Source: Escherichia coli O127:H6 str. E2348/69 (lineage in GTDB: Bacteria; Pseudomonadota; Gammaproteobacteria; Enterobacterales; Enterobacteriaceae). From it: 64,000 nucleotides of DNA. Position numbers and translations under genes: made by a program. The notes beneath the pieces are model-generated. The model was not told the DNA's origin. It did not search any database and saw only the letters and a list, made by a program, of their open reading frames with translations. The DNA is taken from NCBI RefSeq assembly GCF_000026545.1, contig NC_011601.1; one strand, written 5' to 3'. Shown here piece by piece: positions 6,126-64,000 of this stretch (positions are counted from its first letter, which is position 1; each line of letters begins with the position of its first letter).

Positions 6126-6150
6126 AATGCCGGATATGAAATCCGGCATT
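6126..6150. terminator. bidirectional hairpin between convergent yajD and tsx
   Basis: inverted repeat aatgccggat / atccggcatt between the two stop codons. Confidence 0.6.
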
Positions 6151-17901: not shown

Positions 17902-17954
17902 TATGTGGTTGTAACGTCGCATCTGGTCAGATGCGACGCTTACCGCATCCGACA

Positions 17955-21570: not shown

Positions 21571-21718
21571 TACCACCTCTGTTTTAAATTCGCGACTAGT
21601 GTAAAGCGGCAAACGAATGGGGTAAACATGCGGATTTTTTAGTAAATATTTCGAGAGGGATATGATTCTAATGCTAAGAAAAAAGGTGCCGTAGCACCTT
21701 TTTAACTGAGAGGTTGTG

Positions 21719-36819: not shown

Positions 36820-39265
<2,446 letters not shown>

Positions 39266-39318
39266 TGACCTCTGTACTTATAACAGTTCTTATAACAACA
39301 ACGTAAGGTTATTGCGCT

Positions 39319-62185: not shown

Positions 62186-62209
62186 TACATACATTCACAA
62201 ATGTATGTA
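62186..62209. promoter_or_regulatory. AcrR operator palindrome in the acrAB / acrR divergent promoter region
   Basis: 24-bp inverted repeat tacatacattcacaaatgtatgta between the acrA and acrR starts, matching the known AcrR operator. Confidence 0.8.
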
Positions 62210-62237
62210 AATCTAACGCCTGTAAATTCACGAACAT

Positions 62238-62885
62238 ATGGCACGAAAAACCAAACAAGAAGCGCAAGAAACGCGCCAACACATCCTCGATGTGGCTCTA
62301 CGTCTTTTCTCACAGCAGGGGGTATCATCCACCTCGCTGGGTGAGATTGCAAAAGCAGCTGGCGTTACGCGCGGTGCAATCTACTGGCATTTTAAAGACA
62401 AGTCGGATTTGTTCAGTGAGATCTGGGAACTGTCAGAATCCAATATTGGTGAACTAGAGCTTGAGTATCAGGCAAAATTCCCTGGCGATCCACTCTCAGT
62501 ATTAAGAGAGATATTAATTCATGTTCTTGAGTCCACGGTGACAGAAGAACGGCGTCGATTATTGATGGAGATTATATTCCACAAATGCGAATTTGTCGGA
62601 GAAATGGCTGTTGTGCAACAGGCACAACGTAATCTCTGTCTGGAAAGTTATGACCGTATAGAACAAACGTTAAGACATTGTATTGAAGCGAAAATGTTGC
62701 CTGCGGATTTAATGACGCGTCGCGCAGCAATTATTATGCGCGGCTATATTTCCGGCCTGATGGAAAACTGGCTCTTTGCCCCGCAATCTTTTGATCTTAA
62801 AAAAGAAGCCCGCGATTACGTCGCCATCTTACTGGAGATGTATCTCCTGTGCCCCACGCTTCGTAACCCTGCCACTAACGAATAA
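62238..62885 (+). CDS. acrR: TetR-family repressor AcrR
   Basis: 215-aa ORF with N-terminal TetR helix-turn-helix, recognised as AcrR. Confidence 0.95.
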
Positions 62886-63012
62886 CCCTGAATCTGACTC
62901 CAGGAATTTTCCTGGACATTTTCGTCGTTGCTATTCTGGTTCACTGCGTCGTGATATTCTTGCGGTTTGACTTTTTCAGGTCGTTCTTCAGGTTCAGAAA
63001 CCTTCATTCATC

Positions 63013-64000
63013 ATGACTATGTTCCAGTATTACAAACGATCACGGCATTTTGTTTTTTCAGCATTTATTGCTTTTGTTTTTGTCTTGTTATGCCAGAACA
63101 CGGCGTTTGCACGGGCGTCATCGAATGGTGATTTACCGACAAAAGCGGACCTGCAGGCACAACTTGACTCACTGAATAAACAAAAAGATCTTTCTGCTCA
63201 GGACAAACTGGTGCAGCAGGATCTGACAGATACATTAGCCACCCTCGATAAAATCGATCGCGTAAAAGAAGAGACAGTTCAGCTACGGCAAAAAGTCGCT
63301 GAAGCGCCGGAAAAAATGCGCCAGGCGACCGCGGCGTTAACAGCACTTAGTGATGTCGATAACGACGAAGAAACGCGCAAAATTCTGAGCACGCTTTCGT
63401 TGCGCCAGCTGGAAACTCGCGTTGCCCAGGCGCTGGACGATTTGCAAAACGCACAAAACGATCTGGCGTCTTATAACAGCCAACTGGTTTCGCTACAGAC
63501 GCAGCCCGAACGCGTACAAAATGCGATGTATAACGCTTCGCAGCAGCTGCAACAAATTCGCAGTCGTCTGGATGGGACTGATGTCGGCGAGACTGCCTTA
63601 CGTCCCAGCCAGAAAGTGTTAATGCAGGTCCAGCAGGCTTTGCTGAATGCCGAGATTGACCAGCAGCGTAAAAGCCTGGAAGGGAACACTGTCTTGCAGG
63701 ATACCTTGCAAAAGCAGCGTGATTACGTGACGGCGAACAGCGCCCGTCTGGAGCACCAGTTACAACTGTTGCAAGAAGCGGTAAACAGCAAGCGCCTGAC
63801 TTTAACCGAAAAAACGGCGCAGGAAGCTGTCTCCCCGGATGAAGCCGCGCGTATTCAGGCTAATCCGCTGGTGAAGCAGGAACTGGAAATTAACCAGCAG
63901 TTAAGTCAGCGTCTGATTACCGCGACTCAAAACGGTAATCAGTTGATGCAGCAAAACATTAAAGTCAAAAACTGGCTGGAGCGTGCGCTGCAATCGGAAC
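63013..64000 (+). CDS. mscK: mechanosensitive channel MscK, 5' partial (runs off the window)
   Basis: open frame from ATG 63013 (MTMFQYYKRSRHFVFSAFIAFVFVLLCQNTAFA...) to the window end with no stop; absent from the ORF track because it is incomplete. Confidence 0.85.
   Translation, partial: MTMFQYYKRSRHFVFSAFIAFVFVLLCQNTAFARASSNGDLPTKADLQAQLDSLNKQKDLSAQDKLVQQDLTDTLATLDKIDRVKEETVQLRQKVAEAPEKMRQATAALTALSDVDNDEETRKILSTLSLRQLETRVAQALDDLQNAQNDLASYNSQLVSLQTQPERVQNAMYNASQQLQQIRSRLDGTDVGETALRPSQKVLMQVQQALLNAEIDQQRKSLEGNTVLQDTLQKQRDYVTANSARLEHQLQLLQEAVNSKRLTLTEKTAQEAVSPDEAARIQANPLVKQELEINQQLSQRLITATQNGNQLMQQNIKVKNWLERALQSE

Follow-up and report, generated by a model that had tools for sequence, protein, structure and literature searches.

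Among the intrinsic multidrug efflux pumps of Escherichia coli, AcrAB-TolC is the main one, and loss of AcrR repression, through lesions in acrR or in the operator, leads to higher tolerance of antibiotics and solvents. The affinity of AcrR for its operator is about 20 nM. TtgR and MtrR are local repressors that act on palindromic sites at the efflux promoter, and structures of TtgR with DNA exist. TtgR of Pseudomonas putida and MtrR of Neisseria gonorrhoeae are the closest relatives of AcrR with solved structures outside the orthologues of E. coli and Salmonella. Complex structures of MtrR with its operator have also been published (PMC8053128). No AcrR–DNA complex is evident among the PDB matches to AcrR, and its binding mode is therefore taken here by analogy, with a dimer of dimers as the suggested arrangement.

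The AcrR operator is an established element, and few operators of E. coli are better known. A 24-bp AcrR site of the acrAB promoter is used in both PMC9769551 and PMC10597343, which cite Su, Rutherford & Yu (2007) for it. In a 2023 review the same operator serves as the example for the entire TetR family. Harmon & Ruiz prepared a 179-bp acrAB promoter probe for EMSA with the primers pacrABup and pacrABdn (PMC9769551). Purified AcrR shifts this probe, and the shift is prevented by ethidium bromide, cadaverine and spermidine and partially by putrescine; deletion of acrR strongly derepresses acrABp-lacZ (PMC9769551). Here we describe the corresponding element of enteropathogenic E. coli (EPEC) O127:H6 str. 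E2348/69 and compare it with these systems.

RESULTS

The acrR–acrAB locus

The window analysed here is one stretch of 64,000 nucleotides (64 kb) from contig NC_011601.1. Over its part 55500-64000, RefSeq gives the gene order as maa (frameshifted), hha, tomB, acrB, acrA, acrR and mscK. The three acr products pass their NCBIfam equivalog cut-offs, with 418.7 bits against 271 for AcrR (NF007949), 884.6 against 765 for AcrA and 2421.7 against 2150 for AcrB, and each differs from its K-12 counterpart in one residue. AcrR matches the solved structures of E. coli AcrR (PDB entries 2qop and 3bcg) with E = 4e-141; among its other PDB matches, TtgR lies at about 1e-42 to 1e-44 and MtrR at about 1e-31 to 1e-32. 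The acrA–acrR intergenic region is 141 bp long. It separates the start codon of acrA (62096, minus strand) from the ATG of acrR (62238), and the initial annotation, which had placed the palindrome between these two starts, gave both coordinates correctly. The features of the region are collected in Table 1.

Elsewhere in the window, maa (maltose O-acetyltransferase, 55842-56394 on the minus strand) reads as two ORFs that overlap, one of 133 aa and one of 61 aa, and RefSeq treats it as a frameshifted pseudogene in E2348/69. Over 55500-64000, the DNA shows 100% identity to EPEC E2348/69, and the closest other genomes are 99.4% identical.

Table 1. Coordinates of the regulatory elements and genes at the acrR–acrAB locus, numbered from the first nucleotide of the window
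Feature	Position	Strand	Description
AcrR operator	62186-62209	.	left arm 62186-62195 TACATACATT; spacer 62196-62199 CACA; right arm 62200-62209 AATGTATGTA
Predicted −35 hexamer of acrAB promoter	62206..62211	−	TTTACA; consensus scan; 4/6 bases within right operator arm
Predicted −10 hexamer of acrAB promoter	62182..62187	−	TACCAT; consensus scan; 18-nt spacer; first 2 bases within left operator arm
Conserved block of ~36 bp, promoter hexamers and operator	62178..62213	.	per-column conservation, 31 de-duplicated Enterobacterales loci among the matches listed
Marbox (MarA/SoxS/Rob/RamA site)	62238..62257	+	ATGGCACGAAAAACCAAACA; overlaps acrR codons 1-7; perfect consensus match
acrR, TetR-family repressor	62238..62885	+	215 aa, intact; K146R vs K-12
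acrA, periplasmic adaptor	60903..62096	−	397 aa, intact; T104A vs K-12
acrB, RND permease	57731..60880	−	1049 aa, intact; H596N vs K-12

The operator is identical to the published AcrR site

The full 24-nt sequence of the operator is TACATACATTCACAAATGTATGTA, and its reverse complement is TACATACATTTGTGAATGTATGTA. In the repeat search of the window the two arms are 10 nt each, 100% complementary and separated by 4 nt. The description of the element as a perfect 24-bp inverted repeat thus holds for the arms and fails at the center: the spacer CACA is not self-complementary, which makes the element a 10+4+10 inverted repeat. The term "24-bp" is also the literature's name for the site, where it stands for two 10-bp repeats with a 4-bp spacer.

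The reverse complement agrees with the published AcrR-binding site of the acrAB promoter at 24 of 24 positions, an exact match on that strand that bears out the earlier statement that this is the sequence of the known site. The DNA from 62060 to 62300 is 100% identical to that of K-12 MG1655, in which the operator occupies 485709-485732. The published 179-bp EMSA probe maps to 62090-62268, again with identical DNA, so that the in vitro test of AcrR binding to this fragment has effectively been done in the literature. The element almost certainly serves as the operator for AcrR, a TetR-family repressor, within the divergent control region of acrR and acrAB, and no observation speaks against this.

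With up to 3 mismatches allowed, the 24-mer is unique in the 64-kb window, where 0 occurrences were expected (100 shuffles). A search for AcrR half-sites that included the rest of the window gave 3 matches against 2.97 expected, two of them being the operator arms. Perfect inverted repeats with 10-nt arms and spacers of 0–8 nt are more frequent than expected (7 distinct ones against ~0.55–0.7 per 64 kb), and the operator, with 25% GC, is the only AT-rich one among the seven. The six further repeats, with arms of at least 10 nt, lie at 6126-6150, 17915-17938, 21680-21703, 39249-39273, 50905-50930 and 52412-52438. They are GC-rich and, as read from their sequences, probably terminator hairpins; flanking A/T runs are present among them only at 21680-21703.

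The operator overlaps the predicted acrAB promoter

Between 61950 and 62450 there is just one sigma-70-like match on the minus strand, the −35/−10 pair of Table 1. The operator covers four of the six bases of the predicted −35, the entire spacer and two of the six bases of the predicted −10. Transcription of acrAB is predicted to start near 62175, ~7 nt downstream of the −10, which gives a 5′ UTR of ~79 nt. Relative to this predicted start site, the operator extends from −11 to −34 and is centered at −22.5. The EcoCyc start site of acrAp, which we take to be MG1655 485,698, agrees with the prediction, and the EcoCyc and RegulonDB entries presumably agree with the operator–promoter geometry as well. 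The start site, −10 and −35 of the acrAB region are mapped in Figure 2 of PMC3514110, according to its legend.

Since the operator lies over both predicted hexamers, the geometry points to classical promoter occlusion by a TetR-family repressor, relieved by ligand, if transcription starts at the predicted site. The weak hexamers and the 18-nt spacing fit an activator-dependent acrAB promoter. The initial annotation had suggested 62097-62185 as the interval to scan for a marbox, and there the best match to AYNGCACNNWNNRYYAAAYN has 4 mismatches; the marbox is found instead at the beginning of acrR, where the 64-kb window has its sole perfect match to AYNGCACNNWNNRYYAAAY. This box points backward with respect to acrAB transcription and spans about −63 to −82 from the predicted start site, with its center at about −72.5.

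On the other strand, the operator ends 29 bp and begins 52 bp upstream of the acrR ATG, and from this position it probably limits acrR transcription too. Autorepression of acrR through the operator is thus probable from the arrangement; a literature search on acrR autoregulation found no relevant report. The consensus scan gave plus-strand promoter-like matches at 62143-62172. A conserved TGCTAT is also present at 62178-62183 (plus strand), 17 nt downstream of TTGCTG at 62155-62160 (plus strand). These two hexamers could be the −10 and −35 of a candidate acrR promoter, face-to-face with the acrAB −10. If 62155-62183 is indeed the acrR promoter, transcription of acrR would start under the operator.

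Phylogenetic footprint across Enterobacterales

Loci for comparison were picked by the acrR start pattern ATGGCACGNAARACNAARCA, with one genome per GTDB species, which gave at least 120 stretches. Since the pattern targets the acrR start, the selection is independent of the operator. Among the at least 120 stretches listed, we kept 93 loci with an AcrR orthologue (47–97% identity) and at least 200 nt upstream; nearly all have a divergent acrA. Only loci in which the pattern of acrR start and marbox is exactly conserved could enter the sample, so loci with conserved architecture may be over-represented, and the conservation of the marbox in the footprint is built into the selection.

An operator-like site is present in all 93 orthologous loci among the matches listed, and in 77 of them it lies exactly at −52 from the acrR ATG. 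The loci span Escherichia, Citrobacter, Enterobacter, Klebsiella, Serratia, Yersinia, Erwinia, Dickeya, Edwardsiella, Photorhabdus, Xenorhabdus, Providencia and Morganella. Across these 93 listed loci, operator positions 1–4, 6, 8–9, 11, 15, 17–18 and 20–24 do not change, and the variable ones are 5, 10 and 12–14 of the spacer. After de-duplication to 31 loci among the matches listed, the mean information content of the operator is 1.74 bits, with 1.80 bits for the left arm, 1.94 for the right arm and 1.09 for the spacer. In the same 31 loci the flanks reach 0.79 bits (62141-62181), 0.66 bits (62212-62237) and 0.29 bits (62097-62140). The conserved block of ~36 bp at 62178-62213 contrasts with the intergenic DNA on either side. 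The predicted −35 has a mean of 1.85 bits in this set; in the predicted −10, TA..AT is highly conserved and the middle CC is variable, a pattern that would be expected of a real −10. In AcrR, the conservation of the DNA-binding region is 0.84 against 0.66 for the ligand domain, and the recognition helix is near-invariant. From sequence conservation, then, the footprint supports an operator function.

In Tatumella ptyseos (L040) and in the Xenorhabdus loci L026, L084, L106 and L110, the operator is found at −83 or −62 from the acrR ATG, not at −52. These distances imply insertions between the operator and the marbox or acrR start, by which the spacing between activator and promoter would change.

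The two half-sites are not equally conserved

The right arm is nearly invariant among the matches listed: of the 93 loci, three differ at position 16 and one at position 19, and these are its only changes. In the left arm, the T at positions 5 and 10 drifts to A or C in several groups, including Morganellaceae, Serratia, Brenneria and Kosakonia. This drift has neither a compensating change in the right arm nor a change in the AcrR recognition helix. No substitution in the AcrR helix-turn-helix was found to follow the variants of the left arm; the single difference, W63C, lies outside that motif. It is possible, though we lean somewhat against it, that the two half-sites are functionally non-equivalent, that the contacts at 5 and 10 are dispensable for AcrR and that the apparent perfect symmetry in E. 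coli partly reflects promoter constraint. Independently of this, the rare K146R allele of the E2348/69 lineage might subtly alter the ligand response.

Alternative explanations for the palindrome

A palindrome of this kind could also act as a nucleic-acid structure, either as an RNA hairpin in the acrR leader (an attenuator, terminator or stability element) or as a DNA cruciform. A 44-nt stretch does fold into a 10-bp stem (−10.9 and −12.3 kcal/mol, z = −2.7 and −3.0), and the plus-strand promoter-like matches at 62143-62172 would put the operator in the acrR 5′ UTR. However, the stability of the fold is a trivial consequence of the palindrome. The stem is AT-rich (25% GC) without a T-run and is not called by the terminator scan, the operator has no Rfam match at E ≤ 1, and on the acrAB side it lies upstream of the predicted start site and would not be transcribed. 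Among the matches listed there are 22 distinct orthologous variants, in which 0 pairs change on both sides; pairing is simply broken in 19 of 220 cells, by changes at positions 5 and 10, and this lack of compensated arm changes argues against a hairpin role. We consider such a role extremely improbable. An intrinsic terminator or structured RNA had been tried as an identity for the element and was rejected (no GC-rich stem with a T-run, no covariation, no Rfam family).

Still very improbable, if slightly less so, is that the site is mainly the target of another regulator, such as the paralogous TetR repressor EnvR/AcrS, with AcrR secondary. The NCBIfam model of the acrEF/envCD operon regulator is the second-best match to this AcrR (178.7 bits, below the cut-off of 274), which makes EnvR/AcrS a close relative of AcrR, and Hirakawa and colleagues are said to have described repression of acrAB by AcrS in 2008. 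But purified AcrR binds the operator DNA directly and it is the deletion of acrR that strongly derepresses acrABp-lacZ (PMC9769551). In all 93 loci among the matches listed, the site is also accompanied by a divergent acrR, at fixed spacing. Cross-binding by the paralogue is possible and would add to the control by AcrR, not replace it. That the palindrome arose by chance and has no function is hardly credible at all. AT-rich intergenic DNA is prone to repeats, and nothing else speaks for chance; against it stand the expectation of 0 in shuffles and of ~0.6 perfect inverted repeats with 10-nt arms per window, the order-wide conservation of the operator well above its flanks and the published binding data on identical DNA. 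The last two are enough to refute chance.

Variation within E. coli and state of the circuit

Of 5426 complete E. coli genomes, 5423 contain a match to a 401-bp query around the operator, and acrA and acrR are annotated beneath it. The 60-bp core at 62168-62227 is unchanged in 5276 of these 5423 genomes and has 1–2 mismatches in the other 147. In the chicken isolate Z1323CEC0008 (NZ_CP148461.1), an IS481-family transposase interrupts the region near 62216, just right of the operator; with this insertion, the acrAB promoter would be cut off from the marbox and acrR. Among the footprint loci, the spacer reads CATA instead of CACA in E. albertii (L008) and in SCPM-O-B-8794 (L057), which GTDB lists as "E. 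coli". The 60-mer of the latter, which has a second difference just outside the operator besides CATA, has an exact match in no complete E. coli genome, and this suggests a divergent Escherichia lineage as the source of the record. Given the second difference, this comparison concerns the 60-mer as a whole and not CATA by itself as an origin of the 147 variant genomes.

AcrR K146R results from an A-to-G change at 62674, the only difference from K-12 in the surrounding 60 bp. Of 5421 complete E. coli genomes, only 4 share these 60 bp exactly: three assemblies of E2348/69 and a single O99:H6 strain. AcrR position 146 is hypervariable among 95 orthologues, with Arg as the commonest residue (21 of 95). 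As the position varies freely and Arg is the most frequent choice, K146R is probably neutral.

The initial annotation had also judged that the local circuit looks intact. At the sequence level it is: operator, hexamers and marbox are unaltered and the three ORFs are full length. With operator, promoter, marbox and acrR in this state, wild-type, inducible expression of acrAB would be expected in the strain. The unaltered acrAB control region is a useful negative for resistance annotation and holds no new biology.

DISCUSSION

The arrangement described here suggests the following model. AcrR, whose gene starts 29 bp to the right, contacts the two 10-bp half-sites via its N-terminal helix-turn-helix. 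It may do so as a pair of dimers, a stoichiometry that the literature puts forward as a suggestion. AcrR on the operator would keep RNA polymerase out and limit acrAB to basal expression. The C-terminal domain of AcrR binds pump substrates and metabolites (ethidium, rhodamine 6G, proflavine, putrescine, cadaverine and spermidine), upon which the protein leaves the DNA. The global activators MarA, SoxS and Rob act from the marbox, which lies over the acrR start codon ~50 bp upstream of the operator. The mildly new material is confined to the order-wide footprint, that is, the invariant right arm shared with the −35 and the drift at positions 5 and 10 of the left arm, for which the right arm has no compensating change.

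Compared with the known systems, the operator sequences of TtgR and MtrR differ from that of AcrR. In Salmonella the main activator is RamA, which E. coli is not known to have. The Salmonella enterica acrAB region has the same 20-bp box, ATGGCACGAAAAACCAAACA, at an offset that corresponds to 62238-62257. This RamA site, of the same sequence, was mapped by EMSA at −161 to −142 from the acrA ATG (Nikaido et al. 2008, PMC2527123); that study maps the activator box and not the AcrR operator. E. coli K-12 has the same 24-bp AcrR operator in the same position of the same 141-bp intergenic region, with the same divergent acrR/acrAB layout. Between K-12 and E2348/69 the control region shows no DNA difference, whereas the proteins differ by AcrR K146R, AcrA T104A and AcrB H596N.
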